Source: Moniliella sp. 'wahieum' (taxonomy: Eukaryota). From it: a stretch of DNA of 64,000 bases. The position numbers were made by a program, and so were the translations under genes. The notes under the pieces are model-generated. The model searched no databases, was not told the origin of the DNA, and was given only the letters and a program-made list of their open reading frames with translations. The stretch covers positions 620,001 to 684,000 of the forward strand of contig RSEE01000024.1 in the NCBI GenBank assembly GCA_003971905.1. The letters are read 5' to 3'. Positions 5,119 to 36,232 of this stretch are shown in pieces (within the stretch, counting starts at the first letter, position 1; every line of letters starts with the position of its first letter).

Positions 5119-5123
5119 TTGCA

Positions 5124-5246
5124 TGCTGGGCTGAAGGTTGCGAAGCATCGTGCATGAGAGGGTGCTGAAGCTGCGGGGAGGCGCCTGGGCCTGCGACGCC
5201 AGCTGGGCCTGTTCAATCTGCGCCCGCAGCGCCGCCCGGTGTGCGT
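5124..5246 (-). repeat. Displaced ~125 bp copy of CBK1 5' coding sequence (17822-17948)
   Basis: Reverse complement reads gcggcgctgcgggcgcagattgaacaggcccagctggcgtcgcaggcccaggcgcctcc...caccctctcatgcacgatgct, near-identical to CBK1 ([20 protein letters not shown]). Confidence 0.95.
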
Positions 5247-5577
5247 GGCAGGCCAACTACTGGAATCTTGCGTCTCACTGTCGCTGCCATACAATAAAAC
5301 ACGGCGTCTACACCTCACCACTATCGGAGGCACCTACAATCGCATCTCCGGAGTTCACAGCTGGCGTGTATTTAAGATGAGACCGGGCGGGTCAAACTGC
5401 AAGTCCTGTGCATCTTGTCGTTATTCCGACGAATGTCCGTAGTGCGTCGATCGTGCTGCATCATCGCGTGCGTTATAAAAATGTCCTCTGTTCTCGTCGC
5501 GTGCACAGGTTCTGAACCGAGTAATAAAAGCCATGGCGAGCTTGAGAACTTGGCTCGCCGACTTGGCTTGACAGAGC

Positions 5578-6103
5578 TTAGCTCGAGGGCTTAATCGTGA
5601 AGAGAGGACTCTCGTTGCCCGAGGTTCCCACCACATTGATAATGTAGTCATCACGTTCTTCCAGATCCGTGGGCAGGGTGACGGTAAAGTAGCCCTGGGT
5701 GTAGGGCAATTCAGGTTGACCACTGGGGTTCCACAGGGGCCAGTAGAGGTGCGCTCCACCGGAATCGTTTTTCAGCTGGTAGCCCAGCTTGATGGCCGCC
5801 ACAGATTGACCTTGCTCTTCGGGAGGGATGTTGTCCGTCTCCCTGGTGGTATACACCGCCCCGAATCAGAGGTTGGTCAGCTCAATACCAGGATTATGCT
5901 ACAGAGGATGAGAACATGTACGTACCATGCCACGTAGAGGATGGCCAGCATACGCCACCTGGCCCGCGTGCGGGGTGGTTACGGGGGATTCCAGGAGAGG
6001 GTTTGGCCAAGTTGAGCGAAGGGATGGGCGTAGCAGAAACAAAAGCGGTGCCGGTGGCGATGGCACTTAGAAAAGCGACAGTGACGATGGGGGTGGCGAG
6101 CAT
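5578..6103 (-). CDS. Small secreted protein with Kre9/Knh1-like (Ser-Thr-rich GPI family) Ig-like domain; one intron; frameshifts in exon 1
   Basis: Signal peptide MLATPIVTVAFLSAIATGTAFVSA. Motifs WNPP.TTP, VAWETDNIP, KLGY, TVTLPTDLEERDDYIINVVGTSGNESPLFTI. Intron GTACGT..GCTGAC..CAG. Confidence 0.7.
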
Positions 6104-6381
6104 ACTGTGGGAAGGGCGAAAAGTAAGGGTGGGGAGTACGACGATGGAAGATACAGGGAGGTGTTTGTTTATGAGCAACAAGGAAGCGGGGGATGAGATG
6201 GAGGTGTTAGCGGCAGCGACGCCATAGGGGGTGAAGTCTTATATAGACAGGCCTTTGACTCCGAACACCGGAGTCCGGCGTATGGGAGTGGATAGGATAG
6301 CGTTGCTACGGCGGGGAATGCGCGGACTTTTGTGGTCGTGGCCTGTGGAACACCGTCGCCCTCGCATACGATCCCTGGAAG

Positions 6382-6621
6382 CTTGAAGCTTGATGGACGA
6401 CAGACACTCAGCCATGCCGACAAAAAGCGAGTGCTCAGCCCTTAACTAATGAGTCCCGCCGCTACGCGCCAACCTCAAACCCCGTCCGCATAATGGCGAA
6501 CAACGGGGAGCTCTGCCCCCAGTAATAGCACCACACCGCTTCTCCTGACAGGCGGACCCTCTGCCCTATTTGCTGTCCCCTCGAACGAGATCAAGCTTCA
6601 AGCTTCAAGCTTCAAGCCTCA
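6382..6621. repeat. TNA+palindrome heptamer arrays: CT-TGA-AGCT-TGA (6382-6393) and (TCAAGCT)x3-TCAAGCC-TCA (6591-6621)
   Basis: Read directly from the sequence. Confidence 0.95.
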
Positions 6622-6668
6622 ATATGCAAGCGTGGGATTCATAACAAGGTTCACGGGAAGAAGATGAG

Positions 6669-9600
6669 CTAGGTCGTAGACAGCTTCGAGTAGCTCGGCG
6701 GTGCCAATCGGCGCTTGATCGCCATGATCGCGTACAGGGGAAACGAGCTAATGGCAACAATCAAGGACACCTTCCACAGGAACTGGAGGGTAAGGACAAA
6801 ACGCAAGTCGAAGAACTCGGGGAGGAATACAATGCTGATGCAGTAGAGCACCAGTGTCGCTACTTCAGAAATCACCATATAAAGGTGCCTGCGGAGGATA
6901 ACGCGGTTAGTATCCTCAAATGTTGGTCAGAGAGGGGGAGAGAGACGAACCAGGTAGTGATTTCGAGTGCAACCATGATGAGCTCGTTAAACACAAGTGC
7001 GGTGAAAGAGATGGAGACAATGTTGAGGAACTCATTCTCGAACAATGCCAAGGAGGCGATCATGATGGCGCCACCTTGGTAGATAGAGATCATAAGCCAC
7101 TCAGTAAACGTTTACTCGACAGAGATCGCCCTTTTGTCAAGTCTTTATACAGCTCGGGGTACATGAGCGACATGTCTTCGCTCACGTCACGGTCGAGGAC
7201 GAGAGAAAAGACGGGGGCCATAGTGTAAATGGTAGCATAACCAACCATGAGCCAGCCTTGATATAATGCAATGGGGGCGAAGTAAAAGATAGCGCTGAAG
7301 ACGGCTTGCATGACACTGATGATCAGACCCCGATGAATGACAAATTGGGCGAGCTTGGCGCTGCGCTTATACGAGTTACGCCCGTGCCAAACCAAAAGGC
7401 GGGTGAGATGGGAAAATTGGGTTAGACTAAAGTCGGCCGCTAAAGACGCTTGCTTGCCTTCCTTGCCCACAATTCCCAGCCCCACATTGGCCGCTTGAAT
7501 CATGGCCACATCATTCCCGCCATCGCCAATGCAACAGACCCGCTTCTGGGTAAATTCCTTGATCAGTCGCGCCACATCTGCTTTTTGCTGGGGACTACAC
7601 CGACAGGCCACCACAGCACTAAGTTGAGTCGCCACCTCGATAAACTCGGTGGCCAAGTCGGGCTGTTCGGGAGTCAGAAGCTGGTGCAAGCTGTCCCCAT
7701 CAATGACAAGGCAGCAATCTAACTTGGTCCGCAGGATCGACAGGGCATCTCGGGCTGCCTGCGCATGAGGGAGCTTCTGGACAGTGTGAATGTACTGATT
7801 GCGCGCCACCAGACGAGAGCTGATGGCAATGCATGTCGCCGTCTCAATTTTATCACCCGTCAGCATCCAAATCTTGATCCCACCGTTGCGAAGCAGCTCG
7901 AGTGTGGCCTTGACTCCAACCTGTAGCTTATCCTCCACTCCCGTCAGACCCAAGAGTTCGAGCTGGTACTCGAGGTGTTGGGATATCACCGTCGCCATCG
8001 CCTCGTTTCGGTCCTCGAGTTGTAGCTTGGCTTGCTTGTAAGCATATTCAAACGATGCCCATGCCTCAGCACTCAGCTTTTTGCGTCCAATAACGAGCGT
8101 GCGCAAGCCTTCGCGGGCCATGTTTCCGGTCTCCTCATCCAGCCAATCGTTCACCGCCACAATCTTCGTCATGACCACATCTGCCCCCTTCTGATAGAAA
8201 GTAACTTCGCCCGAGCGCTCATCGCGAATGACAATCCCCATACGCTTGCTCTCACTGCTGAAGGGGAAGATCTCGAGGATGCGAAAGCGATACAGTTGAC
8301 CATTGCTTGCTGCCCGGAGTGTCAAATTGGTCCGGTCACGGTACACAAGCGTGAGGCCAATACTTTCGGTCCAGCGTACAATGGCCACTTCATCAGGTGA
8401 CGAAGCTTGGTAGGTAATCTGGGGTTCGTCCTCCTCCCCCACTCCCCCATCATCCCCGTCCTCAATTACTGGAGTGACATTGTGGCAGAGAGCGAGAGCC
8501 AAGGCAAGGTCCTTGACACGTTGGCTCATATCGCGCCTGGTGCGCGGCACATAGTGCTGCCCTCCCGAGATAGAGCGGTCTTGCTTTTTCTGAGCCGCCT
8601 TGCTGCTCTTACCCGTCCCGGCAGGTGTATCGTCGAGCGAAAGCGCAAGCGCCAGTTGCGTTGCCACCTCATCAAAGGCATCATATCCGTAGCTCATTGT
8701 ACCCAGGTGGAGCTTACGAAGCTCCATCTCGTTCTGGGTCAACGTCCCTGTCTTGTCCGAGAGGAGGTATTCGATCCGCCCCAGTTCTTCAGGCAAAGTG
8801 CTGGTTCGTACCACCGTCCCAGGGATGTCTGGATCTGACATGATCTGCCGCCCATAGACCGTCTTGCCCATGTCCAAGTTGACACGGAGCGAGATGGGGA
8901 TGATACTGCTAAAGAGGATGAGGAAACGGAAAATGTAGACCCACCACTCGCCACGGAAACCATTGAAGGCAACCAAGGAAATAGATAACGTGAACGTGAC
9001 GCAAGCGAGAATCTTCGACAAGCGGTTGATCTCAAGGTCCAGCAACCCAACTTTCGTCTCGGGGTGGGATGTATTCATCACCGCACGAGTCTCACTGCCG
9101 GTGTAGACCACCATACCGACCACACTACCAGCCGCAAGGACAGTGTTAGACCAGAGCATGTTCTCCGACGTCAAAGGAACCACCAACGGATGAGGGTTCA
9201 TCGCAATCGTCGAGCCAGGGCGATTGGCACCGTCTTTCCGCATAGCTGCGCTGGCCTCAATGTCCTCGCTAGCCCGGCGCCCGAGAAGGTCCCCTGCCGA
9301 GTGATGAGTCGTCTCTGCACGTGGAGCCGAGTGGGGGAATTGAAGAGACGCCGAATCGCTCGTGTCTAGATCAGGATGGAGAGTAAAATTGCCCACAAAC
9401 GTGTGGATATCCTTAATAGGGGGTCCAGCATAGAGTGAGGCGCGGTCCGTAAGAGAGACAAGCTCATCGTTAGTCATACTCTGGTGCACTCGACCGCCAC
9501 ACGGAGCTTCCAATCCGTTTCTCCGTCCAGCTGGTCCGTGCGGATAAAGCAGGTGCCTCCATCGGCGCCATCGCTCCCGTTCTGTTCGCGATCCTCCTCT

Positions 9601-10647
9601 TGCTCGGCAGCCTTGGCATCCTCTGCCTCCTGCTCTTCGTTTACACGCAAAGGGGGTTCGGGGGTGTCCAACTGGTCTAGGTCATCGTCCAGGGCGAACT
9701 GCAGTTCTCCGTCGCCGGGAAGGCGTTGTGGTGCGCCAGAGTGAGGAGGGTCATTGACTTCGGCGGGATGATGATGAGAGGCATGGTGGTCCCCACTGGC
9801 AGTGCGAAGCAGGAGTAGATCAGCCGGTACGCGATCGTTCTTCTCGAGTACGACTAAATCGCCTACCTTGAGTGCACTGCTGGGAACAGCAAGAAAGGCC
9901 GCATGCTCTTCATCCCCATCAAGCGGAAGCTGAACGCCAGCAGACCGATTCAAGCGGGCAGCAGCCTTGCGCGCTGACTTGGGCACCAATCGGGCCGGGA
10001 GCAAGGTACGATATGGCTGCGAGTTGCTCTCGCATCACGGGGTAGCGTGCCACATCGTCCAATGCTTCCTTGCCAATAGTGACAGCCAAAACAAATGAAA
10101 GAGGCGCAATATAGGTTACCAAGAAGCCAATCTTGAGTGCGGGGATGAACTGGCTGAGAGCGACAAGCAAAAAGTACAGGTTGAAGAAGAACTTGAACTG
10201 CTCGTAGAGAACCATAGGGAGGAAGGTAAAGACGTTGTACTTTTGATTGCAGACCACATTGCGTGCAAATGCCCCGTGCTTCTTGGTGTAGCCTTCGAGT
10301 GGTGCCACTGTGCGCCCAGTGGACAAGGTGCTTGGGCCCCGCGGGAAGAGGCGCTGCCACCAGGGTGAAAGGCGAGACTTTGCGGCAGGATCATCCTGGC
10401 CTGAAGCAGGCGTCGAAGTAGAGGCGGCCATGGAAGTAAAAACATCGGGCTGCGAGGCCACGCGTAACGGGGAGACAGAAGCAGGGAGGGAGTCGGGGTA
10501 ATTGGGTTCGGCATCGAGAGGGTCCGCGCCGGGTTCGGCGGATGTGCCGAGCAGGCCAACACGCTCCTCGTCGGTCAGGTCGTCGTAGCGCGCTGAGGGG
10601 CGGCCGCGGCGGTAGGCCCCGCCATAGCCGCGTGGCGGCGAAGACAT
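6669..10647 (-). CDS. NEO1: P4-type ATPase phospholipid flippase, Neo1 subfamily; intron 6888-6950; frameshifts near 10000-10040, 9480-9500 and 7110
   Basis: [41 protein letters not shown], phosphorylation motif [32 protein letters not shown]-terminal PPSYSKL. Confidence 0.95.
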
Positions 10648-11385
10648 GTCGGGGGGACCGGCAGGACAGGGAGTGCGGTGGTGGTGGCGAAGGTGGTGGC
10701 GATGGTGCGTGGTAGCCAGATTGAAGCTTGAACGCACGCTGCGGCCGATCAGGTGTGCTAACCACAAGCGAGCCTGGTGCATCCGCCACTGAATCGCATT
10801 CGGTGCAAATCCACACCGGGCCTCGGAGGGTTGAATGTTTCAAGGGTGGTCAACGCAGCAGTGCCGGGTGGATGCTTGCGCTGCCGACAGCACCCGAGAC
10901 TGACCTCGGTGTGGGACGACCACTCGTTGCCAATGTTGCAGCGCCCGGTGGAGGCGCGGGCCCCATCCTCACCATCCTCATCGCCAACCCCCCCCACTAC
11001 CCCACCGCCGCTATCGCCACCTGCCGTTGCTAGAGGTCTCATGAGATGTGCCTTTTCCTTGGACGCGGCCGGGCCCAGATGTCCATAGTAGCCCGGAAGC
11101 ACCCCGTAGCTCGTTGAACGCTGAACGAGCCACATCTATACGACACGCTTCTCTTTGACTGAGACGGAGTGTGCGCTGGTCGCGCTCAGCGCTTGGCTTA
11201 AAAGTTACTAGGGCCAGTAAGCAGGCCGTATTTGTGGCCAATCTTACCTCCATCTCGGGTGCCAGATGCATCCACTTTAAAAAAGTTTCGCCAACGGCAA
11301 GGCCGAGATTGTCTCTTTGGCCTATGCCGCGGCCAATGTAGGTCGCATGCCTGTGAGATAATGGTGGCCAGGAAGGAAGCTCATA

Positions 11386-12803
11386 TCAAGTGAGTACCCG
11401 CCGGATTGCATCTCTCGCTTCCTCACCCGGGAGACGAGCAGTCTTTAAGGTAATTGGGCAGGTGTCGACATGCTCGAGGTGAGTGAGGGCACACGAATAG
11501 CAAAACGCATACCCGGTCCGAAGCAATGCAGGGTTGGCGATCGGGGTACGACCACAGATACCACAGGCATTGTACAAAAGTGTGGCCGAGTGGTGTCCCG
11601 CGGGCCAGGGCTTGTGGATGGGTCATCGCCTCCTCGCCCATATCCGTTTCATGCACCCCCTCTCCTGGAACAGCCTTGATCACGGGGGCAACAAAGCCGT
11701 CCATGGGCTCATACAAGATCCCATTCCCATCGGGGAGCAAGGGCTTCGGGGGAAAGAGCGGCACGTTGGACCCGTACCCACCCAATTCGATGCTTCCCGC
11801 CACCACCCAAACTTCCTTCCGCCCCATCCCCTCCTGTTCGCCGCCGCGGAGATTCCGCGCTGTACCACCACTCAAAAACTTGAATCCAAAGATTGCCGCA
11901 GGGAGAAGGTACTGAGCGACTCAAAGAGAAGGCAAAGGGGAGGCTCGCAGGGCTCGGCGCAGACCTTCTCTAGGACGCCGCACAAGGGAGCAGCTCCGAG
12001 AGACACCATCGGGAAGAAATGAGGCAGAGAGTTGATCCTGCGTTAAGTCAGTTCTCAGAACCATACGAGCGGAAAGAACTACAGACCTGATCATCCGGGC
12101 CCAAGCGGCGAATATCAATCCGCATCCACTTAAACCATGGGCGCCAGTGGGGGATGCGATCGAACAGGTAGGCCATGTGATAGACCAGGAGCCAAGCCTG
12201 GTACCCCACCTGGGCATAAGGATAGCCGTGATAGAAGCAAGACTTCAACCTGGCTTGTACACGCTCCCGTCGACTAGTGTTGCCGACGGCAGTAGCAGGG
12301 CGTTGGGATGCAATGGGGGAAGAGGGGGCATCTGAGTCACCTTCGTCCTCGTTGTCACCGAAAAGAACCTCGTCGCTAGGGAGCCCTCCGCCCATGCGTT
12401 CCCACAAAGTATGTGCCTTGGCAGCCAGGTAAGGAAGGCCGACAAGGAACAGAAGGGAGAGGTTGATTTCGCGTGGGCGCAGCTGTTCATGCTTGAGCTG
12501 GGTGGCGCGGGACTGGTGACTGTTGGCGTTAATGACACCGGGACGCCGGCGGCGCTTGAGTGAGTAAAAGTGCTCGGAGAAGGAGGCACCCCAGGTCTTG
12601 AGGTAGTGGCGCTCAACAAGGAAGAGAGCAAGGGCATAGGCTTCGTCAAACTTGTTGGCGAACCGCAGGAGCAGACCGGCACGTCGCTGTGCGAGGACAA
12701 CGACAATGTAGCGCAGGGCTGGGCCAAGGAGAGAGCGGAGCTGTTCGGATGCGTATAGCTCAAAGAATGATGGCCGCAGTGGATCGACGGGGATGTCGGA
12801 CAT
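11386..12803 (-). CDS. PEX12: Peroxin 12 (Pex2/Pex12 N-terminal domain plus degenerate RING); intron 12038-12086; frameshifts in the 3' half
   Basis: PSFFELYASEQLRSLLGPALRY, VERHYLKTWGASFSEHFYSLKR, FEWWYS, CGICGRTPIANPALLRTGYAFCYSC..TCPIT. Confidence 0.93.
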
Positions 12804-12863
12804 GGCGGTGGTTGTGCAGAAGGACGAGCCAAGCGGCACTTGCAGCGTTGCGTTGAAGTTGAT

Positions 12864-12882
12864 GTTTAACGTTTAACGTTTA
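12864..12882. repeat. Heptamer array GT-(TTA ACGT)x2-TTA upstream of PEX12
   Basis: Read directly from the sequence. Confidence 0.9.
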
Positions 12883-13268
12883 TCCTGTGTACACGACCCG
12901 GCCCCCTCTACCCAACGAGCCACTCCACACAATCTGAAAGCGGCCCCAGCCCCCCGCGGTGCGACCGCCAAATAGGACCGAATCCCCCGGGGCGGAATTT
13001 GTTCCGGGCCATGGCACCCGGCTACCTTTGCCGGCCCGCGCTTGTTCGATTATTTGCTTGCAGTCAAAAAGTTGGTGTGCTAGCTACTCTTGTACTGGTG
13101 CTTGCACATCTACTTTTCCCTCGCTCCCTCTCTGGTATATCTTGGGCGCACACTGGAGGTCTAACAAAAAAATCGCAATGAGCACGAAGAAACAGGGTTA
13201 TATATGCACTTCAGGAAGCGGCCTGGGTGCTGAAAGGTATGGAGGGTACAAAGAAGAGAAAAAACGGC

Positions 13269-14417
13269 TTATTTGGCTACCGATTTGTGCTGCTCGGCAT
13301 GCTTCACGATCCAGCTGGAGGGGTGCAAATAAGAGTTTAGTATCATATGATCAAGGGGAGCGTTCATCACGTACTCAGTCACAATGTTGGCGGCCTTGAT
13401 GCGTTCCTCCATGTCCTCTTGCAACGGCTCATGACGATGATTCTTGAACGTAACGAGCGTCTTGTCGTCCGCCTGCACCTTCTTCTCAAACTCGACTGAT
13501 CCGGCATATGACACCACCGGGTCCTGGTCTCCATGAATAAGGAGCAAGGGAAGGTGTGCAGGATAGTTTTTGTACTTGTCGTTAAGCAAGTCCATCCCGT
13601 TGAGCAGCGGTCCGGCGATCGCCCGCAAAAAGACCTTCTTTTCCATGTAAGGGTTTTTGCGCGCATCCTCCTGAATAACCGGGTCGGAGCTTAGGTCTTC
13701 GGGTGCGATAGGGTTGACCCAAGGCATGTTGGGGAAAATCTTGAGCACACCCCGGGCCAGCGTCTGGACAATCCCAGGAGGAGGGCTGGTCAATTTGAGC
13801 CACGGCGCCGAGCCAATCACGCCAGCCAGGCCTTCTGTCGTGGTGGGCGGAAGATACGGGGAGTCGGCAGGACGCGTGACCGAGCTCAAGGCCAGCTGAC
13901 CTCCCATGCTGTGGCCCATGATGAAAAAGGGTACAACTCCCGGACCATACTTGTCATCCATGCGCTTGCGCTCGGCAAGGATGACCTGATTCAGGTCTTG
14001 CAACAGCAGTTCGAGCGTCGTGTTCGAGTGGGTGTCCTTTTTCCATTCACCAGTCATGCCTTTCTCAGCGGTGACACCATAACCGCGCTGGTCGTAACTG
14101 GTAACATAGATGCCCTTATCAGCAAAGACGGGTACGATGTGGTCGTAGCGGTAAATGTTCTCATTAAACCCGTGCTGGACGAAACGAAATCAAAGGATGA
14201 GTACCACCGCCGCTTGTAAAGAGTAGGAAGTAAGGAAGCAGCGTACAATGAGCACCAGCGCGGCTACGGGAGGCTTGCCCTCTGCGACCAGGGACGGCAC
14301 CCAGTGCTTGGTGAAGAGTTTGACCTCAGGATGGGTGGAGGTGGTGACAAACTCGTCCTCCGTGGTGCAAGGATTGGTAACAGGGGCGAAGGGGACGTCG
14401 GTGTTTGCGCTGCTCAT
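13269..14417 (-). CDS. Alpha/beta hydrolase, monoglyceride lipase/lysophospholipase (Yju3-like); introns 14175-14246 and 13315-13374; frameshifts near 14060-14130
   Basis: VLI|HGFNE oxyanion segment, YDQRGYG, nucleophile GHSMGG, LLIHGDQDPV, RHEP. Confidence 0.9.
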
Positions 14418-14589
14418 GGTGGGGGGGGGGATGGAGAGAGAGGTGGTAGGCAAGAAGCTAGACGCGCGTGCGCGGTTGGACAGCAGTGCGTGCATTCACA
14501 TGATCCGCATCCGGATCCATCCCATCGTCTGTTCCGAGTGGGGCGCCCGGCGGGCGATGTGGCATGTGGCGGCGGGGGCGACGGTGTCC

Positions 14590-14690
14590 GATCATCGATC
14601 ATCATCCATTGTTTCCGCCATTGAAATGTTGATCATCAATCGAGCGATCCGAACAATCATCGATTCTCGCCCATCGATCATCGGTCATCG
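14590..14690. repeat. TCA-TCGA heptamer cluster in the divergent promoter between the lipase and F-box copy 2
   Basis: GA-TCA-TCGA-TCA-TC at 14590-14603 and degenerate units at 14653-14690. Confidence 0.85.
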
Positions 14691-17473
14691 GCCATCCAGC
14701 CCGCCGAGTGGCTTGGCTATTACATGCAAATTGATTGCACCCCCTTGTAATCCCACCCCCCTGGGGGAAACATGCCAGCGTGGCATGCACTGTGTTCCGC
14801 CCAGCGCAGTCCCGCCCCGCCTTACTTGGGATTTTGGCTGCTGGTGGTGTATGTACCACACGGCTGCCCATCGCATTTACCTTCGATTTGGCGCGCCTGT
14901 CGCCCTCACCCTGGTATCCTGCCTCCCCCTCTCCTCCGCCTCCATCCACTCATCCATCGCTAGCATATCCTCCCTCCGCCAGCATTCCTCCCGACGGCCA
15001 CATGCGCCAATTGCCTGTTCTCCCTCGTTCCTTTTTTCCCCTGCCCCCGGGGAGAAGGAGGTGCGGGGCTTGGCTATCGCCCCTCCACGCCCTACCCTCG
15101 TGTCCCTACCGGTCGAAATCCTTTACCACATCGCATCCTCTGGGGTTCTCGCTCCTGCGGATGTGGTCCGCCTCTCACAGACAAACAAAGGTGGGTATTT
15201 CCAAAAGCTCTCTTCGGAGAGAGTACCAATCAAGCTGACTTAGGGGTTCTTTTGTTGCCAGCATTGCGCCACGCGCTAATGAATGACTACGTTTGGCATG
15301 CTCTAGCTCTGCGCACCGGCCTTGTTCCATCCTTGGAAATGGAGCTGGAAGCGGCCAGTATTCGCGCCGATGTTTGCCCCCTTCCCAGATCATGGTACGC
15401 TTTTGTCGTGTACTTTGACATGATCGAATGGCACTTTGGCTGGAACCTTTTGGGCGAATGCGTGCCTCCTCGAGAACGCCCCATTCGCCCTCGGGAACAC
15501 CCCAATTCCCCTCAGGAACGCACCAAGCGCCGTGCCATTTCGGAGGTTGATCGACCCGCTCAACTACAGTCCATCAAACCCATTGTTTGGGGACAGTGTT
15601 TGCGATATCGTTCCCCACTCTTTATCACAGCGGATGATCGAACCTTCTTTGGTTATTCCAACTCAGACGAAGCAGAAGACTTTACCGTTGTAGGCGTAGA
15701 CTGAGAGACGGGCCGGACAACCTGGCTCAATACCTGCCCACCGGATGAAGGTGATTGGGTTGACGCGTGGGCGCGCAATATGGTCAAGACTTGGGGATGG
15801 CAAGTTGTGGTCTTCCGAGGTAAGCACCCTCTTCAATTCCAAAATTTGATGCTAGCCGGTTACCTACCTCCCATTTCTCATGACAGGGCAAAGCAAAGAC
15901 GAAAGATATCGGGACAAAATGTGGGCCATGGTGTATCGCGTCGGTTTGGATGACGGATCGATCCACTTTGAGTGCAAAATAGATGTTTACGACACGGACA
16001 CTGACACCAGCTGGATTGTTCCAAAAGACGCTTTCTTCGAAGTGCTTACACCCGCCATTAATGGTCACAGCCTCTTCATTGCGTACGTTTCATGTTAACA
16101 TATATGTGTGGCCGTGCTGGCTTCTTATACCAAAGGGATGCATCGTACAAAGTGTACACATTCGACATCCTCACTCGACAGAAGACGAATGAGTTCTCTT
16201 TCACCAAGTGGATCAAGTTTTCAAACTACGAGTATGATCGTTATCCGTTCTGCAGTTCGAGGAGTTTTGCTAACAACCAGTGTGCAACTTGCAGCGGCTT
16301 TATCGACGTGCAAGCTGCTGGCGATGACCAGTATATTTTCCTCCTCGCGGGAGCAGGCAATCTCCTGGCGATTGACCGCCAAACCAATGAAAAAGTATGG
16401 TCATTTGAGGACATGCTTGGCGATCCGCCCATGTACGGCCTTAATCACCCGGACCAAATTGCCGCCTTCTCCCTCCAGCCATCGACCCCTCTGGAGCCTA
16501 CCCCTTCCTTACAACCGCTTCCTGTATGTGCATTTCTGCCACCAGCACATGCACACAGTTTGACTGACACGATCTCTCGCAGAGGGATCCGACCTGCATG
16601 TCATTCCATCCGCTTGGCACAGCATGGCTGAGCACGCTGAAGATCTTTGTTGATTCGTTCACCAAGTCGCTCATCATTTCCTCCGGCTCTATTCGTTCGT
16701 CCGATTTCCACATCTGGATTCTCAAGAACTACAAGTCGGTGTTAAGGCGCGGCTCGGCCAATGAAGCATGGCTTGCAGGAATATGGGAATTTCATGAACG
16801 AGCCCGACCGCTTTGGTTTGGTGCAACCTCGAATGGGAGGATGTTTGCGCCTTACCTTATTCCCGGTTGGTCCTATACCGTAAGAACAAACCAGAGGGTT
16901 GTAGCCCATCAGGGAAAATGGCACGGGTCTTTCGCGCGTTATGTTCCCGATTTCGTGCCGTATGAGAAGTTCAAGGAGTGGGGATCCTTGTCCCCGCATG
17001 TTCTGGATTGGCGACATGCTCGTTCGCCTTACGAGATGCGAATTGTCGCTTTACAAGCCGGGCCTATTCCTGCACAGACGGGCCAAGTACTCACCGCTGG
17101 GTTGCTCTACCCGAACGAGATGTTCAGAGAAACAGCAAGCGCCACTTTGGCTCGTCTCGGGCAAGGCGCAGGCTATATGCAGACCCAACGGATGCCCCCC
17201 TTTCTCTCGCCTCGGGGCGCCTTCCTGTTTGTGCCGAGCCAAGCGCAATGGTTCCCTGCCACCAACGATCCCCATGAGGCGCTCCAGATGCGCTGGGACT
17301 GGGGGCAGGCTGCGGTGGAGTGGCTACGCAATCGCCAGCAATAATGGATCGGTGTTCCGTCGTCGTATATATGCCCCCAAGACACTGTAGTCTGCCAGGC
17401 GAAGGTGGTCTGTGTGTGTACGAAAAATGATTAATGACGGCCCTGACACTGGCTCTTCCTTTTGCTAGCTGCT
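14646..17473 (+). repeat. Inverted duplicate (copy 2) of 2223-5118
   Basis: Same alignment as copy 1. Confidence 0.95.
15002..17344 (+). pseudogene. F-box protein with PQQ-like beta-propeller repeats, copy 2; introns 15191-15261 and 15820-15886; in-frame TGA at 15702-15704 and frameshift near 16096; start uncertain
   Basis: Splicing gives a complete F-box LVSLPVEILYHIASSGVLAPADVVRLSQTNK|ALRHALMNDYVW. Propeller-like motifs VVGVD*ETGRTTW, YRVGLDDGSIHF, LLAIDRQTNEKVWSF. Confidence 0.75.
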
Positions 17474-17661
17474 CCTGGAGAAGGTGGCCTGTGCGCCGCA
17501 TGAACAATTGAAATGGGGGGCGGGGGCACACTGGCCGTGTGGCTGCGCCACGCGCCCTTGCTGTCCGCAACCCGCCCCGCCAGCCCAGCCCAGCCGCGCC
17601 GCCGCCAACTGCTTCGCTCGGCCTCCTGTGTCTCGTGCGTCGGGGCGCTTTGAGTCTGCCC

Positions 17662-19474
17662 ATGTCCACCCCCGGCGCTGTTTCTGCGCACAGCATGCCC
17701 GCCCCGCCCGCCAGTCTGTCCTTTCCCCAGTGGCCCGACGCGTCGAGGATGGTGTACTGACTGCGACGATCCATCTCTGTTGCCCTGTTACTTGCAGACG
17801 TGCACGGCATTCCCGACCCCGACGCACGCCAGGCGGCGCTGCGGGTGCAGATTGAACAGGCCCAGCTGGCGTCGCAGGCCCAGGCGCCTCCCTCGCAGCT
17901 CCAGCACCCTCTCATGCACGATGCTGCGCAAGCGCTTCAGGCCCAGCAGACCCAGTTGGCCATGGCCGAGGCCAGTCTCGAAGACCGGACCAGGCAAACG
18001 GATGATGGCGTGGGACAAGCTGTCGCATCGCCCTCCTCCCAGGGGAAGGACGATGATTACGTTTATTTTAAGCGCCGTCTCGAAGGTATCAGCAAGGGCA
18101 CCATTGAAGCGGCCACAGGGGCGAAGCTCAAGCTGGAGCACTACTACAAGATTGCTGTGGCTCAGGCAATTGAGCGGGCTGGGCGGGGTGGAGCTGGAGA
18201 AGCGACTGCTGGCCGCTGGTCCTTCCTTGTCCGAAGATCGTAAGGAGCGGCAGCTGACCCAGCTGGGCCGTCGCGAGTCGAACTTTTTGCGCTTGCGGCG
18301 CACCCGGCTTGGACTAGAGGATTTCCGGACGGTCAAGGTGATTGGAAAGGGTGCGTTTGGAGAGGTGCGCTTGGTTCAAAAGACTGATACGGGTAAGATT
18401 TATGCAATGAAGACGCTGCGGAAAAGCGAGATGTTCAAGAAAGACCAGCTGGCTCATGTGCGGGCGGAGCGAGATGTGCTCGCCGAGTCCAACTCGCCGT
18501 GGGTGGTGCAGCTTTACTACTCATTCCAGGATCCCCACTACCTTTACCTCCTCATGGAGTTTCTCCCGGGTGGAGATCTGATGACGATGCTCATCAAATA
18601 CGATACTTTTTCAGACGACGTTACTCGCTTTTATATGGGCGAGTGCGTGCTTGCCCTCGAGGCCATTCATTCGCTCGGCTTCATCCACCGCGACATCAAA
18701 CCCGACAATATCCTTATTGATGCCAAGGGCCACGTCAAACTCTCCGACTTTGGTCTTTCGACTGGCTTTTACAAGCAGCATGACTCGGCCTACTACCAAA
18801 AGCTACTCGAGGGCAACACGGCACGTGGTGCGGTGGCCCAACAGGCGCACCGGGACCAGGCTGGGCGCAACTCGGTTGCCGTTAATCCGATTACGCTTAC
18901 TCTCAGCTCGAAGGACACGATTGCCACCTGGAAAGCCAACCGACGCAAGTTGGCCTACTCTACTGTCGGCACGCCTGACTACATTGCACCCGAAATTTTC
19001 CAGCAGCAGGGCTACTCGTCAGAGTGTGACTGGTGGTCCTTGGGTGCCATCATGTTTGAGTGTCTGTGTGGCTACCCTCCCTTTTGCTCAGAGAACGCGC
19101 ACGACACGTACCGCAAGATTCTCGCCTGGCGAGACACACTTGCCTTTCCTGAGGATATCCATCTCTCTCCCGAGGCTGAACACATGATCCGCTCTCTTAT
19201 CCGCGAGCCGGAAAACCGACTGGGCCGGCATGGTGGGGCCCAGGAGCTGAAGGATCACCCCTTCTTTGCTGGTGTTGACTTTTCTACCATTCGCCAGATT
19301 GATGCACCCTTCATCCCTTCCCTGCGGAGTGTCACCGACACGTCCTACTTCCCCACTGAGGATCTCAATGAGGTGCCTGACCTACCCCCTGCTGCTGAAC
19401 ATGGCAAGCAATCGGACCTGCCCTTCTTGGGCTACACATTCCGTCGTTTTTCAACCAACGAGGAGGCTCTTTGA
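17662..19474 (+). CDS. CBK1: NDR/LATS-family AGC kinase (Cbk1/Cot1/Orb6/Ukc1); probable intron 17714-17797; frameshift near 18185
   Basis: [62 protein letters not shown], hydrophobic motif FLGYTF. Start codon inferred from a phase-compatible intron. Confidence 0.95.
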
Positions 19475-20289
19475 GCAGCTGCTGCCCTGACTGGATGGAC
19501 ATGAACGCATCTCTTGCGTCCTGCATTGGCTACCGTTACCCTTTCTTCCTCCGGCAACCCCCTCCCCCCTCTTATTGAATTGCCCTGTCTCTTCCATCTC
19601 AAATTTCATCTGCACGGTCAACAAGAACTCGAAGCCATTACGGAGCTTCACATTTGGCAATCACGTTAATCACGGTTGCTGGCTGCAAATATAAGATCCG
19701 GGTTGTCGTAGTAAGCAGCGTGCGTATATGGGCACCGACGGAAAGTATTCCAGTCTAGTGTCTGGAGCTAGGCCATACTTGTGTCAGAACGAGAAGCCCC
19801 AGACCTGGGCTTGATCGCTTAGCCTCTCAGGTACGCCCTGCCCGCAGGCACGCCCTACTGCTCGTGGAGGCTTGTTCAGAGCGACCAATAAGCTGAGACG
19901 GACGCCAAGATCATCGATCTACTGAGTAGCTCAGCCGCGCCCAGGCTGAGTCTCAGCATGGCCGTGGCAGTTGTTTTGGCCGACTTGTGGTTCCGTGGGG
20001 CGGGAATGATTAATGACTCTTGAGCTGAGCAGGACTGGACGCTTCGATCGCGCCGAAGAGTGTCTGGTCGACGAGGGGCCACCCCAGCAAGCCAAATGGG
20101 ATTGGTGCGCCCCATGCGCCCTATGACGCAAACGAGCCTATGACACTGGCGCCATGCCGGGATATAATCCTGGAACGGATGTCCTGGGCCCTTCCAAACA
20201 ATACCTCCCCTCCCACTACCCCCACTTTTTGCTTCGTCTCCATAACCACCTCCATCTTGGGACCCATTCCTCCCTTCCCGTTCTTCTCC

Positions 20290-22071
20290 ATGTCTATCGC
20301 TGCCACACAGCCACCCGCGCCGGCGGCAACCGCCATCCCCACCGGCAGCGCCGCCCCCCGTCCTTCCAGCACCTTGCCTGCCCATGCCCTCTCCACCCTT
20401 CCTCTGCACCGCTTTGCTTCTTCCGTTGCCTCTGCTTCTGTTCCCGCCGCCTCTGCACCCTCTCGCACATCCACTCCCAAGTCCATGCACCACTCTCCCC
20501 TCCCCCAATACCATTCATCCGTGCCTCCGCGCCAATATCAAGAACCCTCTTCTGCATCCGTCGGCCCTCCCTCCCTGTCCCAGCCACTCTATCCTTCCGC
20601 CCCCTCCATCTCACTCCCTGAGGTTCCCGTCATTCCTTCCCTTCCCGAGCGAGAGAGCAGTACTACACGCCTCTCCCTCCGCCATTCCCACAGCGTCACT
20701 ACTATTCGCACGCCCCCCAATCCCTCTCCTCGGGCATCCCGCCGACCCCTCTCCATGGCGGGTGCGGATCAGGATGCCGCCCAGGTCATGTCCCGCCCTC
20801 GCACTGCCCCATTTCGCGTAGGTGTGGTCGAGGACCCCAACAAACGCTGGCGTCGCACCATGGAGGATTCACATACATTTGTTTATGACTTTGGCGGTGT
20901 TCAGGGTCAAGGCTTCTTTGGCATATATGATGGCCATGCGGGAAAAGCTTCGGCTGAGTGGTGTGGCAAGTACCTCTATCAGGTATGTACTCTGTCCCTT
21001 CCCTTTGTCTGAAACTGACGTGTCTTGGGCAAGTAGTACCTGCGTGAGCATCTCATTCGCTATGGAAACGAACCGGTTCCCGATATCCTCAACAATACCT
21101 TCCAAAGCGCGGACCTAGCACTGGGCGAAATAGCAAAAGAAACTCGGACCTCGTCGGGATGTACCGCAGTGACCTGCTACTTGCGGTTGGAAGATGCTCA
21201 GGGGGTCCCTCTAGCCGGGTCTGGTTCAGGAGGGATCATGCATGGCGAAGCGGGGGCGTTGGGCCAAGCCTTCATTGGAGGTGCCTCAGTCCCCCCTCAT
21301 ATTGAGGGATTCTCTACTGTGGCTGTTCTGCGTACCAATCCCGACCCCCTGACCATCTCCCCTGTTTCAGAGGTGGAAACAATGCCCGAACCTAAAAATC
21401 AGCACAAGGGTCTTCTGAATTCGCTTGCTCGTCGCGCTGGATTGCCTCACCTACACCGCCGCTCTGGGTCTGTCAATAGAGCCTCGGGCGAGAACCGCCC
21501 TTCATCGCCGGACACACCCGCCGCCTCGGGCTTGCCCCACCATTCGCCCGATCGGACGCCAGTCCATCTGCTGGACCCGCTTGTGGCTGCAATCCCCTAT
21601 CGGCGAGTGCTCTACACGGCCAATGTGGGGGATGCCCGCGCCGTCCTCTGTCGCGGTGGGAGGGCAGTACGTCTGACGTACGACCACAAGGGTTCGGACC
21701 TCCAGGAGGCGATGCGAATCCAGGAGGCAGGAGGGTTCGTGATGAACGATCGTGTCAACGGTGTCCTGGCAGTGACTCGCTCTTTGGGGGATAACAGTAT
21801 GAAAGAATTCGTTGTGGGCAATCCCTACACCACGGAGACGACTCTGGACGAAGAAGACGCCTTCCTAATCGTTTCTTGCGATGGGCTGTGGGACGTGACG
21901 TCGGATCAAGAAGCAGTGGACCTGATTCGGAACGTGGACGATGCCCAAGAAGCGGCTCGGATTTTGCTAGATCACGCCCTTTCCAACGGCTCCACTGACA
22001 ATACTTCTGTCATGGTTATCCGCTTCAACGCCAAACCCGATACAGGCTTTGCATCACGAATCATTTCGTGA
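20290..22071 (+). CDS. PTC1: PP2C protein phosphatase, Ptc1-like; intron 20983-21036
   Basis: [66 protein letters not shown]. The intron joins the two ORFs in frame. Confidence 0.92.
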
Positions 22072-23406
22072 TCGTTGTTTTTCCCGACATTGTGGGAACT
22101 GTTGGTAAATGACGTGTACTAGTATGCTCGCCACTTTCCCCGTTATCTCTATAGTACTCTTCTATCTTGTGTCTGTGCCGGGTTGTCTTCCGACCCGGCC
22201 TTTTCCCTCTCGACTGAAGTTTGTCTTCCCAGAGAGGCAGTTCATCTTTCGCTATCATCCTACGACCGACGCTGTTCCTTTCTGCTCTATCAAGTTGAAT
22301 TAAGATCTCTATTGGCTATACTTAACGAGTGCCATTCTGGTTTCGAGGGACCATCGACACAACCCAGGAGGCAATAAGTGCAGCGTATGAGCTCGCAGCT
22401 TGTGTGGGGGGGGGGGCACATCCTTCCTGCTTTCGGAACGACCATGCTAATTTGTGCTCAAGAACAACGACCCCGGCTTGCCTGTGAGCGATGGATTGTT
22501 GTCAGAATCACACCGTGCTAGGGGGCCCTTGCCCACTAGGCCCGTATGGGCACTATGGCGTGATTCCTATCAGTTGGGAGATCCTGTGTCCACCTCTCGA
22601 CTGTGCCCCCTTCCTGAGGAGGACATATACCTCCTCTGCGTCCATAGATGTATGCAATCCATCTGCACCCTTTCCCCCATCTCCGTCTCCTGACAATTGT
22701 CATTGAGAACGAATGCGGCCCGCTGTTTGCCAGGGCTCATTTAATGACTCGCTGCTCTGCCCGAACCGGCGTGGACATGAACCGACTCCGCACCTCGCTT
22801 GTGTTGGGCGCTTCGGTTGCAGGGGAATGTTTCCCTCAACTTAGGCCAACTCCCGTATTTGGGGTCTGCTCAACGCCAAACACTCCACCACTGTCTCGGA
22901 CCGTGAACAAGTAAGTCTTAGAATGACCACTTCGGAAAGAGAGACACAATGGGTTGTCAAAACGGTTGACTACAGGTGCGACCCCATCCTCGCGTGTGCA
23001 ATCAGGCGCTGATTTGCTGTTGTGCTGACCAGATTGCGGCGATGGTTCAAGGCACGTAAGGGAAGGACGTCGAACCTAAGCCTGCGCCCAAATCCAAACT
23101 GTATCCTTTAGGGAGCGCTACCCTGCTACCGTTTTCTACCATGTATAGTTGACTACGAATTTCTTTCTGATCTTGTGAGCAGCATAAGTTTCGATACGCC
23201 TATCAGCGCATTGAGATACAAAATCGACGACGAGAAAGCGGACCAGAGATATTGCGCGAAGCCGAAGCCAGTGACGAGGGTAGGTCGCCAAAACAATCCA
23301 AAGCGGTGGGGAGAGTAGGAAGCGTAAGAACACCAAAGCCAGTGGAGAGGAGTGTAGGAGGCCAAAGGAGGCCGAACTCGTTGAGGGAGGGTACACATCA
23401 TGCAAC

Positions 23407-24445
23407 TCATGGGCGTGAATATTTCTTGGCCTTGTTCGACTTTGAATATTTCCCTTTCGGGCTGCCTTTCCTCTTGCCCTTGCCCTGTGTATCGGAGGCC
23501 AGAGTGTCCTCCACCCACTCTTGCACTGGTTGCCAGGTTGCCGATTGGAACAAGTCTTGTGTCTGCAAGCCTAACATCCCGAGAAGTCCTTGGTTATCTT
23601 GATTTGGTTCCGCTGAGGACTTTGTGGCAAACCTTGCCTGTGCGTTGGATCGGCTCCTCTTTCCGCTCGCGCTTTTCATCTCATCTGGCCGTGGAGATTG
23701 GAGGCGAGTGATAAACCTTATGATGGCCATCGTCATACTCGCCAGCTTCGCTTGGACATCCAAGGGCAGAGTGCGCACCATGCTTACCGCGTCTGTACTG
23801 AGGGATTTCCAAAGATCGGACGTGTCCATTGCACCTTGGTCTAACACAAACAAACAAAAAATAGTTCAGTACCAAATTGGTCGGTATAGTCTTCAAGCGT
23901 ACGGACCAGGGTAGACAGAAGGTGAAGCGAGGCGCTGACTTGATGGGTCGCTCACTGCAGGAAAAACCTACCTTTCGGCCGTCCCGACGACTTGACGGGC
24001 CAGCCTGGGAAACTGGGACCCATTTATCGGCCCTATTGTATACGCCGAAGGTCGATCGCCACCCTTTCGTCGGAGTCACCCCTGGGGAGGTAACCGCATC
24101 GGCTTGGCCCGAAAGGATGCTGTACACGGCTAGGGCGGCAAAGAGGAGGAAGGACCACTTGATTGCCCACCATGCCATCCTCATACTGGATCGAACCGTA
24201 GAGGAGACCATGCGCACTGCAATGTACATTGCCAGGAGGGTGGCGAAAGGGGGTAGCAGTGTCGTCTTCCATGACGAAGGGTCATTGTACACCCCCCAAA
24301 AGGTGGTGTAGATCAGGTTGCTGAACACGCCCAGGAGGTAGTACAGCTGCCTTCCCACGATCGCGCAGGCGGTCGTAGTGATGGATGCCAGGGTAGCAGC
24401 GGGGGAATTGGAGGCGAGGGGGGCGGCGGGGTCGGGCAAGGCCAT
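23407..24445 (-). CDS. Small membrane protein, Apq12-like (nuclear envelope); probable intron 23841-23971
   Basis: Two hydrophobic helices around a basic amphipathic linker (LLAMYIAVRMVSSTVRSSMRMAWWAIKWSFLLFAALAVY) and a basic C-terminus. Intron GTAGGT..TAG. Family assignment is by resemblance only. Confidence 0.55.
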
Positions 24446-24580
24446 GACCAGCAGTAAAATCAGAGGTGGCGTTGGTGGGGCTGGCTGGTGACGGCCAAAC
24501 ATCGCAAAGCAACGCAAAAGGAGAGATCCTGATAGGCCCACGTGACTTGCGTCTTCGTTTCATTTTCTACGCACTGCAAC

Positions 24581-24676
24581 GTTGAACGTTGAAGCGGCGC
24601 CAGTAAAGTTCAAAATGCAATGTGCCACATTTCGCAAGTACTAGAGTGACTAGCTAGTGACAGCTAGTGACTAGTG
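24581..24676. repeat. Heptamer units (GT-TGA-ACGT-TGA; TGA-CTAG repeats) in the divergent promoter of the Apq12-like gene and eEF1B-gamma
   Basis: Read directly from the sequence. Confidence 0.85.
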
Positions 24677-24857
24677 CAGCTTGAAACTTGCAGCGTGAAG
24701 ACGGCGGAATGGGACGCGCATTCCACAGTTCGCGCAGTAGGGGACAGGTGGCAGGACACTGTCGCCGTGCCGTCCTTTGTTCTGTACATGTCACACACGC
24801 GCCCTCACAATCTAAGACGACAGGTACGCTTCTGTCCCACCACCCCATCTGTACACC

Positions 24858-26319
24858 ATGTCCTTTGGCAAGCTCTACAGCGGTAACGTCAACTTTTTCC
24901 GTAACTGGCGGATCCGTGCTGCGGCCAAGCTGGCCGGGCTCGACATCGAGATCGTCCCCACCAAGCCTGGCGTGGGCACCAAAGAGCCCGAATTCCTTGC
25001 CCTCAACCCCAAGGGCAAAGTCCCTGTTTGGCAAGGCGCCGATGGCCTTGTTCTCACCGAGTCGCGTGCCATCGCACTTTACTGTATGTCCCCCTACCTC
25101 GTTCTTTCCCTTCGACAGCGATGTGTTCTTCGGAACAGTTATCCCTGGCTAAATGGCGGCATGGTAGCCGCCGGGTCGTGTCGAAAACGCTTGCACATAA
25201 TGTGGCTGAGCTGTACAGGGGGTGACACCGATTGACCCGATCAAGGTTACTAACGCTATTGTCTTCGTTTCATCATTAGTCGCCTCGCTCGCCAAGAATG
25301 CCAAGCTCCTCGGCAACGATGAAGCCACATCGGCTCTCATCACTTCGTGGGTTGAATGGGCTGACGATGAGGTGTTGAGCAAGGCCATGAGTATCTGCTA
25401 TCCCAAGTGGAACATTGTGCCTTACTTCAAGCCTCTTGACGCACTGCAGCGCGAGGCCCTTGCCAAGTCGTTCTCTGACCTCGAGAAGACCCTGGCCAAG
25501 AAGACCTTCCTGGTTGGCCACCGCCTGACGCTCGCCGACATTTTCGTCGCTAGCAGCCTCCAGTTCGTCTTCACCTCCATCTACGGTGCCGAAACTCGTG
25601 CGAACTACCCCAATATTGTCCGTTACTTCAACACGATTTACAATGTGCCTGGTATTAAGGAGATTGCCCCGACTGAGGCGTTGCTCGCCCAGGACTATAA
25701 GTTCACCGTTCCTAAGAAGGAGAAGGCGCCCAAGGCTGCCCCTACTCCTGCTGCTCCCAAGAAGGAGAAGGCAGCTCCCAAGCCTGCTGAGGATGCCGAA
25801 GAGCCCGTGAAGGAGGCCCCTAAGGCAAAGAACCCTCTGGACTTGCTCCCCAAATCCTCGTTCATCAACGACGACTGGAAGCGGGTCTACTCCAACCAGG
25901 ACACCAAGACCCAGGCCATCCCTTGGTTCTACCAGAACTTTGACTGGGAGGGCTGGTCCATTGTCAAGTTCCGCTTCAAGTACCCTGAGGACCTGACGGC
26001 CATCTTCATGAGCTCCAACTTGATTGGTGGTTTCTTCAACCGTCTGGAAGCTAGCCGTAAATACTTGATGGGCACCGGTGGCGTGTTCGGCGAGGCCAAC
26101 GACTCCGAGATCCAAGGTGTCTTCATTCTCCGTGGCCAAGACTGGAAGCCTGTCCTTGGTGTTGCACCCGACATCGAATCATACGAGATCACTCCCCTGG
26201 ATGTGCGCAACAACGAGGAGGACAAGAAGTACTTCGAGGGTATGCTTGAGTGGGACCTTTCGGTTCCGTCGCGCTCGGGTAAGCCCCTGGCCTACCAGGA
26301 CGGTAAGATACTCAAGTAA
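24858..26319 (+). CDS. TEF4: Translation elongation factor 1B gamma (GST-like N-terminal plus EF1G C-terminal domain); intron 25084-25279
   Basis: FLALNPKGKVP, LTESRAIALY|F, TFLVGHRLTLAD, KNPLDLLPKSSFINDDWKRVYSN, FMSSNLIGGFFNRLEASRKY, DGKILK. Confidence 0.96.
25115..25214 (+). ncRNA. snR38: Intronic box C/D snoRNA, snR38/SNORD1-like
   Basis: Terminal stem ACAGC/GCTGT, D box CTGA at 25206-25209, guide CAGTTATCCCTG at 25136-25147 complementary to the conserved LSU rRNA CAGGGATAACTG, D'-like CTAA at 25149. Yeast snR38 lies in the TEF4 intron. Confidence 0.85.
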
Positions 26320-26806
26320 GCGCTGGGCTCCCTGCGTTCACTGGCTTGAATTTCATGGTTAGATTCTCACTTTGATGCCCGTTCATTTGGCCCAATATTA
26401 GTCCCTATTTCCTGTAGAACAAAAAATCATATGAGGAAGGGAACACCTAAACCAGTGGGTCAGAAGTAGGTTCAACATTGTGAATGGTATTAGATGTGGT
26501 AGTACATCTATGAAAAGAAGTATCTATTGAGGTGTTATTAAGGAGGATGTCGTTGATACCGATGGTGGGGAAGATATGCGTGAGGAAAATTTGTCAAGAA
26601 GTACCACCATCAACAACAGCTTTTTCTGCTCAAATTTGGCCTATAAAGCAGAGTGGCATGCTTTGCCCTCATCTCTGCTCCGGGCTCCGGTGAGGTTGCG
26701 GTCGACGAAGTAGAGCACAGGTAGAGCTGTGTGCGAGGATCGCCACAAAATGGCAGGGGGGCAAGGGGGCGAATCTGGCCGAGTTCAGCGCTGGCTAGCT
26801 GGGAGG

Positions 26807-27225
26807 TAAGATCTAAGATCCGAGAAGAAGCGGGGTGGGCGTCCCGAGAACAAGACCAGTTGTGGTTCACAGGGCGATGCGTCGCTGAAAAGCCGCACGA
26901 TATAAACACGCTCGTCACGCGTCACGCGTCACGAAGTTACGCGTGACAAAATCAGCGTTCAATAACATGTAACAGTGACTAGTGATCGAGTGATCATCGA
27001 TCATCGATCATAGCGATAATCGATAATCTATCGCGTGACAGTGACATGCGACATGCGACATACGATGCTGCGCCACACATCACCCATCACGCACAGCACG
27101 TCACGCAACACTTCACCTTTCAAACACGCTTCCCTACGTCATCGACGTCATCACGCCGTCGTCACCCCATCAATCATCGATCCTCAAGCCTGGCCTCAAG
27201 CCTCAAGGAGGCCTCAGGGCCTCAG
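26807..27225. repeat. Dense cluster of TNA+palindrome heptamers upstream of the SH3 gene
   Basis: TAA-GATC-TAA 26807, (TCA-CGCG)x2 26915, TAA-CATG-TAA 26963, TGA-CTAG-TGA 26976, (TCA-TCGA)x2 26994, CGA-CATG variants near 27045. Confidence 0.92.
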
Positions 27226-27308
27226 GTTGCTGCCAAGTACCAGCAGGTATACTAACCCCCAGCGGCGAGGCCCAGCCGCCACTCGCTCCGCCACTTCTTG
27301 CTCCCGGC

Positions 27309-34298: not shown

Positions 34299-34320
34299 AT
34301 CTCTATGTTGTGTGCATTCC

Positions 34321-36089: not shown

Positions 36090-36232
36090 TTTAAGGGAGT
36101 GGAGGGACGCGTCGACGCGACTCTGTCATATGCCCGTTAGTTGGCGCAGCCCCCCCCCCGTCACGTGCAGGTCGGGGAGCAGTAGGGTTGCACACTTTTT
36201 GGTGGGTACTGCCATATGGTAATAGAAGATGC

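Follow-up and report, generated by a model that had tools for sequence, protein, structure and literature searches.

Seven-base palindromic units at TNA sites in noncoding basidiomycete DNA: candidate excision footprints of a transposon with a 7-bp target

We analyzed a 64,000-nucleotide stretch of contig RSEE01000024.1 (assembly GCA_003971905.1, Moniliella sp. 'wahieum'), here called the window, which is basidiomycete nuclear DNA and the genes of which include those for a P4-ATPase, kinases, PP2C and EF1-gamma. One gene of the window is present in two copies as part of an inverted segmental duplication, and just downstream of this gene each copy carries a 7-base unit that is missing from the other. 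Both units obey one rule, by which a 5-mer TNAXY, where XY denotes the two bases following TNA, is present twice and the two occurrences are separated by Y'X', the reverse complement of XY; the same rule recurs throughout the window. The two copies of the gene and the sites in question are as follows, with the word scar used for a locus that conforms to the rule.

2225..5106, minus strand: copy 1 of the paralog, inverted segmental duplication (sequence comparison, MAFFT)
14660..17475, plus strand: copy 2 of the paralog, inverted segmental duplication (sequence comparison, MAFFT)
17426..17437, minus strand: putative scar in copy 2, reading AATGA-TT-AATGA on the plus strand and TCATT-AA-TCATT on the minus strand (period-7 run of exactly 12 bases; the copy 1 site is plain)
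2264..2270, minus strand: counterpart of the copy 2 scar, the apparently unoccupied 7-bp site AATGACG in copy 1 (read directly)
2248..2259, minus strand: putative scar in copy 1, TGACA-TG-TGACA (read from the sequence)
17442..17448, plus strand: counterpart of the copy 1 scar, the apparently unoccupied site CCTGACA in copy 2, with one substitution at -1 (read directly)

Aligned with MAFFT, positions 2550-5106 and 14660-17367 of the two paralogs share 88.4% identity over 2541 aligned pairs, and 29 of the 43 gaps in this alignment comprise a single base. In the neighborhood of the 7-base differences, the plus strand of copy 2 continues from its scar at 17426-17437 with CGGCCC and then TGACA (17444-17448), and in copy 1, read as its reverse complement, AATGACG (2270-2264) is followed by GCCG and then by TGACA-TG-TGACA (2259-2248). 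MAFFT, when unaided, places no gap across this stretch and returns a block of mismatches, and the gapped register is therefore our manual reading of the two sequences; it is much the more parsimonious of the two, and with two 7-base gaps in place the 9 bases between the sites mismatch at one position only. A preliminary description of this DNA had proposed that each copy holds one extra 7-mer at a different TGA, that the empty site in the other copy is plain sequence, and that the filler equals the reverse complement of the flanking dinucleotide (AA giving TTAA and CA giving CATG), and all three statements can be read directly from the two copies, in which the sites lie 9 bases apart. The 7-bp targets would have been AATGACG for the scar in copy 2 and CGTGACA for that in copy 1. 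The last long open reading frame (ORF) of copy 2 ends with a stop codon at 17342-17344, about 80 bases upstream of the 7-mer sites, which therefore probably lie in the 3' untranslated region. The gene had been taken to encode an F-box protein, an identity that was not confirmed, its ORFs having no Pfam match, and a metagenome search with the 258-residue ORF just upstream of the copy 2 sites found no relative.

To place these two units in the context of the window as a whole, we carried out a census of the 12-mer TNAXY-Y'X'-TNAXY and of perfect tandem repeats. The 12-mer has 96 matches, where 30 dinucleotide shuffles lead one to expect 0.37. The rule and its specificity are plain from the counts: among the 16 combinations of first and third base, T..A alone is enriched (the other 15 give 0-11 matches), and T precedes NAXY in 96 of 108 cases. 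There are 11, 96 and 2 matches for inverted copies with lengths of 1, 2 and 3 bases, respectively, versus 4.9, 0.3 and 0 expected, and complementing the middle base N leaves only 4. Identical TNAXY pairs that lie 2 bases apart have the reverse complement of XY as their filler in 96 of 134 instances, and the two mirror-image forms of the unit are both present. The isolated events, 31 in number, harbor 13 different XY dinucleotides, and it is therefore the flank, and no fixed element end, that supplies the fillers. Of these isolated events, 25 have C or G as the middle base, 15 have G at -1 and 12 have C at +1 (background of the last two, ≈25% each). The complete set and three loci that illustrate its range are listed here.

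1..64000, strand not specified: set of 55 loci (the 96 matches) of TNAXY-Y'X'-TNAXY, all of which lie outside Pfam-supported ORFs (pattern census)
33222..33244, plus strand: nested scars on one TGA, with the left flank used once (AATGA-TT-AATGA) and then the right (TGAGC-GC-TGAGC) (pattern census)
6591..6617, plus strand: array of (TCAAGCT)x3 followed by TCAAG, the terminal 5-mer being as the rule predicts (tandem and pattern census)
53632..53663, plus strand: longest array of the window, with the unit TCA-CTAG (tandem and pattern census)

The scars show strong clustering, in a small number of intergenic regions (32400-34300, 26800-27230 and 51700-54900) where different 7-mer arrays adjoin almost without a break, and some of this spacer DNA may be made up mostly of sequence that derives from scars.

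At 25 of the 55 loci, the period-7 run spans just 12-13 bases and represents a single event on a nonrepetitive site; longer runs cluster at 19-21, 26-27 and 32 bases (that is, 12+7k plus chance extension). The window has 50 perfect period-7 tandems (3.55 expected from 20 dinucleotide shuffles), of which 28 have a unit composed of TNA and a 4-base palindrome. A high frequency of period-7 tandems is what one would expect of ordinary 7-bp microsatellites that grow by replication slippage, or of palindromic motifs under selection, for example, as protein-binding sites, and slippage probably does aid the growth and shrinkage of arrays that already exist. As an account of the scars themselves, we give this explanation little credence. 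Slippage expands an existing repeat, without a rule of phase or sequence, and the placing of the first inverted dinucleotide on a nonrepetitive site is beyond it; the arrays here end in phase with TNAXY and follow the rule of TNA plus palindrome, and 13 different XY dinucleotides amount to no common motif. The same conclusion follows from a metagenome pattern scan with a 26-base (TCAAGCT)n stretch as query. This stretch is present in at least 121 metagenome contigs, a point in favor of ordinary microsatellites, but those contigs contain just 11 further loci that follow the rule in 506,900 bases (5.0 in simple shuffles), compared with 55 in the 64,000 bases of the window, and the signature is therefore specific to this genome and not to arrays generally. 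The contigs come from many environments and range in GC content from 0.29 to 0.70, and the surrounding scar signature is absent from them. The earlier view, according to which each unit originates anew at one TNA and records a recurring process, with no microsatellite expansion, is upheld by the 25 single-event loci, the lengths of the longer runs, the enrichment of TNA alone, the 2-base inverted copy and the variety of the fillers.

The distribution of the scars also bears on whether they are real. As a direct observation, the loci avoid coding DNA completely: 0 of 55 fall within Pfam-supported ORFs, though 637 of the window's 2772 TNA sites are situated in such ORFs, an outcome with a chance, by simple arithmetic, of about 0.77^55 (<1e-6). 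An assembly artifact would not avoid coding DNA, and the scars are therefore real mutations under selection. Turn-around synthesis is a known artifact of displacement amplification, and inverted chimeras made by strand-displacing polymerases could in principle resemble the units described here; however, an assembly or amplification artifact of this type explains neither the avoidance of coding DNA nor the specificity for TNA, many units bear later point changes, and the events differ between paralogs that are 88% identical. We regard such an origin as exceedingly improbable.

Variant scars with a longer spacer delimit the sequence that is duplicated. Identical TNAXY 5-mers at spacings of 3 and 4 bases number 30 and 39, respectively, versus ≈5-6 expected. 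Where the spacer begins with Y'X', the extra base of the +8 forms is the base that precedes the first TNA in 7 of 9 matches (6 of 8 loci; chance, 1/4), and the two extra bases of the +9 forms are L2L1, the two bases that precede TNA, in 8 of 11 matches (7 of 10 loci; chance, 1/16). Matches with two inverted bases and 0, 1, 2, 3 or 4 repeated flank bases number 96, 7, 8, 0 and 0, a limit that is read directly from the counts. One or two preceding bases are repeated and never more, which points to a duplicated target of 7 bp, L2L1-TNA-XY (nnTNAnn), symmetric about N. On this reading of the sequences, one side of each scar would carry two palindromic bases from its own end, and the other copy of the target would be complete, shortened by one base or, mostly, shortened by two. 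A target of 7 bp removes the asymmetry of a 5-bp duplication and explains both mirror-image forms. Deeper trimming of the second copy would give +6 and +5 forms, of which there are 2 (1.45 expected) and 12 (4.5 expected), respectively, versus 96 of the +7 form, and TNATNA is in mild excess (122 versus 85.9 expected). Two loci illustrate the longer forms.

33906..33931, plus strand: array of the +8 form with the unit C-TCAAC-GT, in which the base before TNA is repeated too (pattern census)
34011..34028, plus strand: the single clear +11 form, GC-TAAGC-GC-GC-GC-TAAGC, with palindromic bases from both flanks (pattern search)

Perfect tandems with periods of 6, 8 and 9 bases are likewise overrepresented across the window, with 42, 9 and 12 present and 13.35, 0.85 and 0.3, respectively, expected from shuffles. 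Scars of the +8 and +9 types account for part of this excess, and coding repeats of the trinucleotide type account for some of it. Two arrays have a period of 11. The first (24645-24674) consists of TGA plus two 4-base palindromes (CTAG CTAG) and fits a scar with additions from both flanks, and the second (27137-27165) has the unit CGTCACGACGT, which contains an 8-base palindrome that the simple rule does not explain.

We consider it more probable than not, and hold with moderate confidence, that the 7-mers were left behind as footprints when a cut-and-paste DNA transposon was excised, the element being one with a 7-bp target duplication, nnTNAnn, in which G is weakly favored at -1 and C at +1. 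Insertion of such an element would create two copies of the 7-mer L2L1-TNA-XY, and its excision would close both flanking ends into hairpins, as happens in V(D)J recombination and when hAT elements are excised. If the hairpins were opened 2 bases 3' of the tip, which is the usual position of opening in V(D)J recombination, the result would be a 3' overhang of 4 self-complementary bases (XY-Y'X' on one end), and the recessed strand of the other end would begin at the T of TNA. End joining that kept one overhang and lost the other would then give L2L1-TNAXY-Y'X'-TNAXY or its mirror image, for a net gain of 7 bases; retention of both overhangs would give the +11 form, clearly at 34011-34028 and perhaps at 24647, and loss of both would give TNATNA. 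The scar would hold a perfectly symmetric 7-mer, Y'X'TNAXY, and would therefore itself be a good target, the re-use of which, perhaps together with replication slippage, would add identical units and build up arrays. One such event in each paralog, at neighboring sites and after the duplication of the gene, would account for the two differences with which we began. In all of this, we infer the element, its hairpins, the 2-base opening and the polarity of insertion at the paralog sites; because of the footprint model and the 25 loci that represent single events, the two differences between the paralogs seem likelier to be gains than exact losses of 7 bases.

A number of findings weigh against an element of this kind. 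No transposase domain is found by Pfam in the 137 ORFs of ≥110 residues in the window, no miniature inverted-repeat transposable element-like inverted repeat is seen there, and identical nnTNAnn pairs 40-6000 bp apart in the window never enclose ends that match at ≥10 of 12 positions; neither the element nor an occupied site is therefore observed. The density of scars, ≈0.86 loci per kb, implies very many visits by the element. The footprint spectrum is far more uniform than is typical of hAT elements, the target consensus of which, nTnnnnAn, has no obvious reduction to nnTNAnn. Finally, scars with palindromic bases on both sides, which the model allows, amount to just one or two cases, and the evidence from +8 and +9 forms comes from 8 and 10 loci, respectively.

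A process that makes no use of a transposon requires no element in a window where none is seen and accommodates the very high density of scars more easily. A TNA-specific nick or break could be followed by a short stretch of strand-displacement synthesis, after which the polymerase would turn around, switch template so as to copy XY as Y'X', and go back to the original template at T; both units of the resulting +7 product would have the same N. Short template switches form an established class of mutation (PMC5453318), the members of which resemble the units reported here in that they are de novo inverted copies of adjacent sequence, but they are neither site-specific nor of fixed length. We think this origin possible but distinctly less probable than excision. 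Its product is compatible with the window, yet a strict site, a fixed length and a 7-bp limit are not expected of template switching, and the symmetry about N and the repeats of L1 and L2L1 in the +8 and +9 forms go unexplained. Furthermore, a return driven by microhomology predicts scars at ANT, GNC and CNG sites too, which have 0, 0 and 2 matches, respectively. We know of no TNA-specific nicking enzyme of the kind that this process would need. A bolder proposal, to which we assign a similarly low likelihood, is that the genome possesses an endogenous TNA-specific nicking or breaking activity, without any transposon, and that stereotyped hairpin or turn-around repair writes 7-base palindromic units into noncoding DNA; in a milder version, the agent would be an undescribed group of elements, or else a transposase that has been domesticated, forms hairpins and recognizes nnTNAnn as its target. 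Were this so, the process would run at a few percent of the rate of point substitution and would create both microsatellites and new intergenic sequence.

Returning to excision by a cut-and-paste element with a 7-bp target, the nearest known systems are hAT elements, together with the coding joints of V(D)J recombination and their P nucleotides. hAT elements usually have a target-site duplication (TSD) of 8 bp, short terminal inverted repeats and a transposase with a DDE catalytic core and a hAT C-terminal dimerization domain; Kyakuja belongs to the KDZ group, which has CA..TG termini and a KDZ transposase. The footprints of Ac/Ds, in the sections of PMC4561436 available to us, contain palindromic stretches derived from flanking DNA that indicate hairpins. 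The filler rule (96 of 134 pairs) is consistent with flank-derived palindromes of this type, from which we infer the hairpin chemistry, and the likeness extends to the presence of flank-copied palindromic additions beside retained duplications, with the other end trimmed. The differences are that the window has a 7-bp, TNA-centered duplication with a nearly uniform outcome (two palindromic bases, with the other copy beginning at T), that its scars reach ≈0.86 loci per kb and grow into arrays, and that neither a hAT element nor its transposase is seen in the window. Two groups of basidiomycete cut-and-paste elements come closer in the length of the duplication, which in the window reaches 7 bp and not more: in the part of PMC12730594 consulted, hAT7 is a hAT lineage with 7-bp TSDs from Pucciniales, and Kyakuja has 7-bp TSDs and is from Agaricomycotina. 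Elements with a 7-bp duplication, and of hairpin type, therefore exist in basidiomycetes, although these two were described in other subphyla than the Ustilaginomycotina-like genome of the window; what they share with the present case is the duplication length. The affinity of that genome can be judged from the EF1-gamma ORF (25210-26316), the best protein match of which is 75% identical, with Tilletiaria, Ustilago and Tilletia proteins at ≈53% and no near-identical entry; the genome appears to represent a basidiomycete lineage, Ustilaginomycotina-like, without a close sequenced relative in the protein collection searched.

The target TNA is also that of the PIF/Harbinger (PHIS) superfamily, and footprints of an element of this type, with a 3-bp target, are a further conceivable explanation of the scars. 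According to the excerpts available, NuwaII of two basidiomycetes has the target C-TNA-G (PMC4482050), and mPing accepts TTA, TAA, TCA and TGA and is excised precisely via complementary 5' overhangs (PMC4561436). The likeness is confined to a T-N-A target with a free middle base. PIF/Harbinger elements duplicate 3 bp, whereas the duplication in the window extends to 7 bp; precise excision contrasts with 55 scarred loci, and TNATNA, the product of simple fill-in, is in only mild excess; the fillers are diverse and flank-derived and are not element ends; and the bases favored next to TNA, G at -1 with C at +1, are the reverse of those in the NuwaII target. An origin from PIF/Harbinger elements, NuwaII included, is already disfavored on these grounds and in our judgment very unlikely. 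Tc1/mariner and Stowaway footprints resemble the units of the window in that a scar consists of the target duplication plus a few bases, but the extra bases of the former are constant and come from the element ends (PMC4561436, same excerpts), whereas those in the window vary with the flank. The literature searched, covered for the most part as titles and the openings of abstracts, together with excerpts of the papers cited above and of PMC5148889, PMC13234504, PMC7218506 and PMC9942834, yielded no description of TNA-centered 7-bp palindromic units.

Several other derivations of the unit were tried and rejected. Filler taken from element ends is ruled out by the 13 different XY dinucleotides; hairpins on a 3-bp duplication should leave the filler T-N'-N'-A, but no such filler is seen; and fill-in of 3-base overhangs yields +3 products only. 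A piggyBac-like hairpin on a pseudo-end predicts +5, and a nick 1-2 bases inside the flank predicts a filler that is not palindromic. A 5-bp duplication with one-sided palindromic bases is asymmetric and was superseded by the 7-bp result.

If the scars are indeed excision footprints, the genome would preserve a record of visits by transposons that is unusually dense and easy to read, at roughly one scar per kilobase, and from which the 7-bp nnTNAnn target, the 2-base opening of the hairpins and the end-joining preference of the host could be read without experiment. It would also offer a clean natural case of the birth of microsatellites, one scar being a symmetric target that seeds 7-bp arrays. 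As frequent and nearly homoplasy-free characters, the scars are suited to serve as markers for recent paralogs and strains, and annotation pipelines would otherwise call them ordinary tandem repeats.

Two further 7-base differences had been put forward in the preliminary description, and each was borne out in part. The first, a third and decayed unit near the upstream end of copy 2, is indeed doubled there and single in copy 1, but its filler departs from what the rule predicts, and the case is compatible with a scar yet ambiguous.

14678..14691 (versus ≈5093 in copy 1), plus strand: TCATCGG, present twice in copy 2 and once in copy 1; possible decayed scar (8-base gap in MAFFT; filler GG, where GA is expected)

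The second concerns repeat A, a direct repeat at 34321-34511 and 52842-53051 that is 70% identical between its copies (BLAST). The 7 extra bases claimed for its copy 2 are present at ≈52883-52889, but they do not fit the TNA rule. This copy has an 8-base insertion that gives rise to the 10-base palindrome TTGGCGCCAA, and both copies of repeat A adjoin an intergenic stretch dense in 7-mer scars.

Finally, the segmental duplication has two other features of its own. A block of ≈240 bp (2312-2549) is found in copy 1 only, and beyond it the homology with copy 2 resumes; its borders lie inside a TA run, the block being situated between CGTCGTA and TATATGC, and no terminal inverted repeat was seen at it. 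In addition, an inverted repeat of 71 bases (5176-5246 and 17822-17892) is 96% identical, compared with 88% for the adjoining paralogs, and it lies upstream of copy 1 yet downstream of copy 2, in the latter case at the start of a kinase ORF (17654-19471). This placement, together with the higher identity, suggests a permuted unit of duplication or a later gene conversion.

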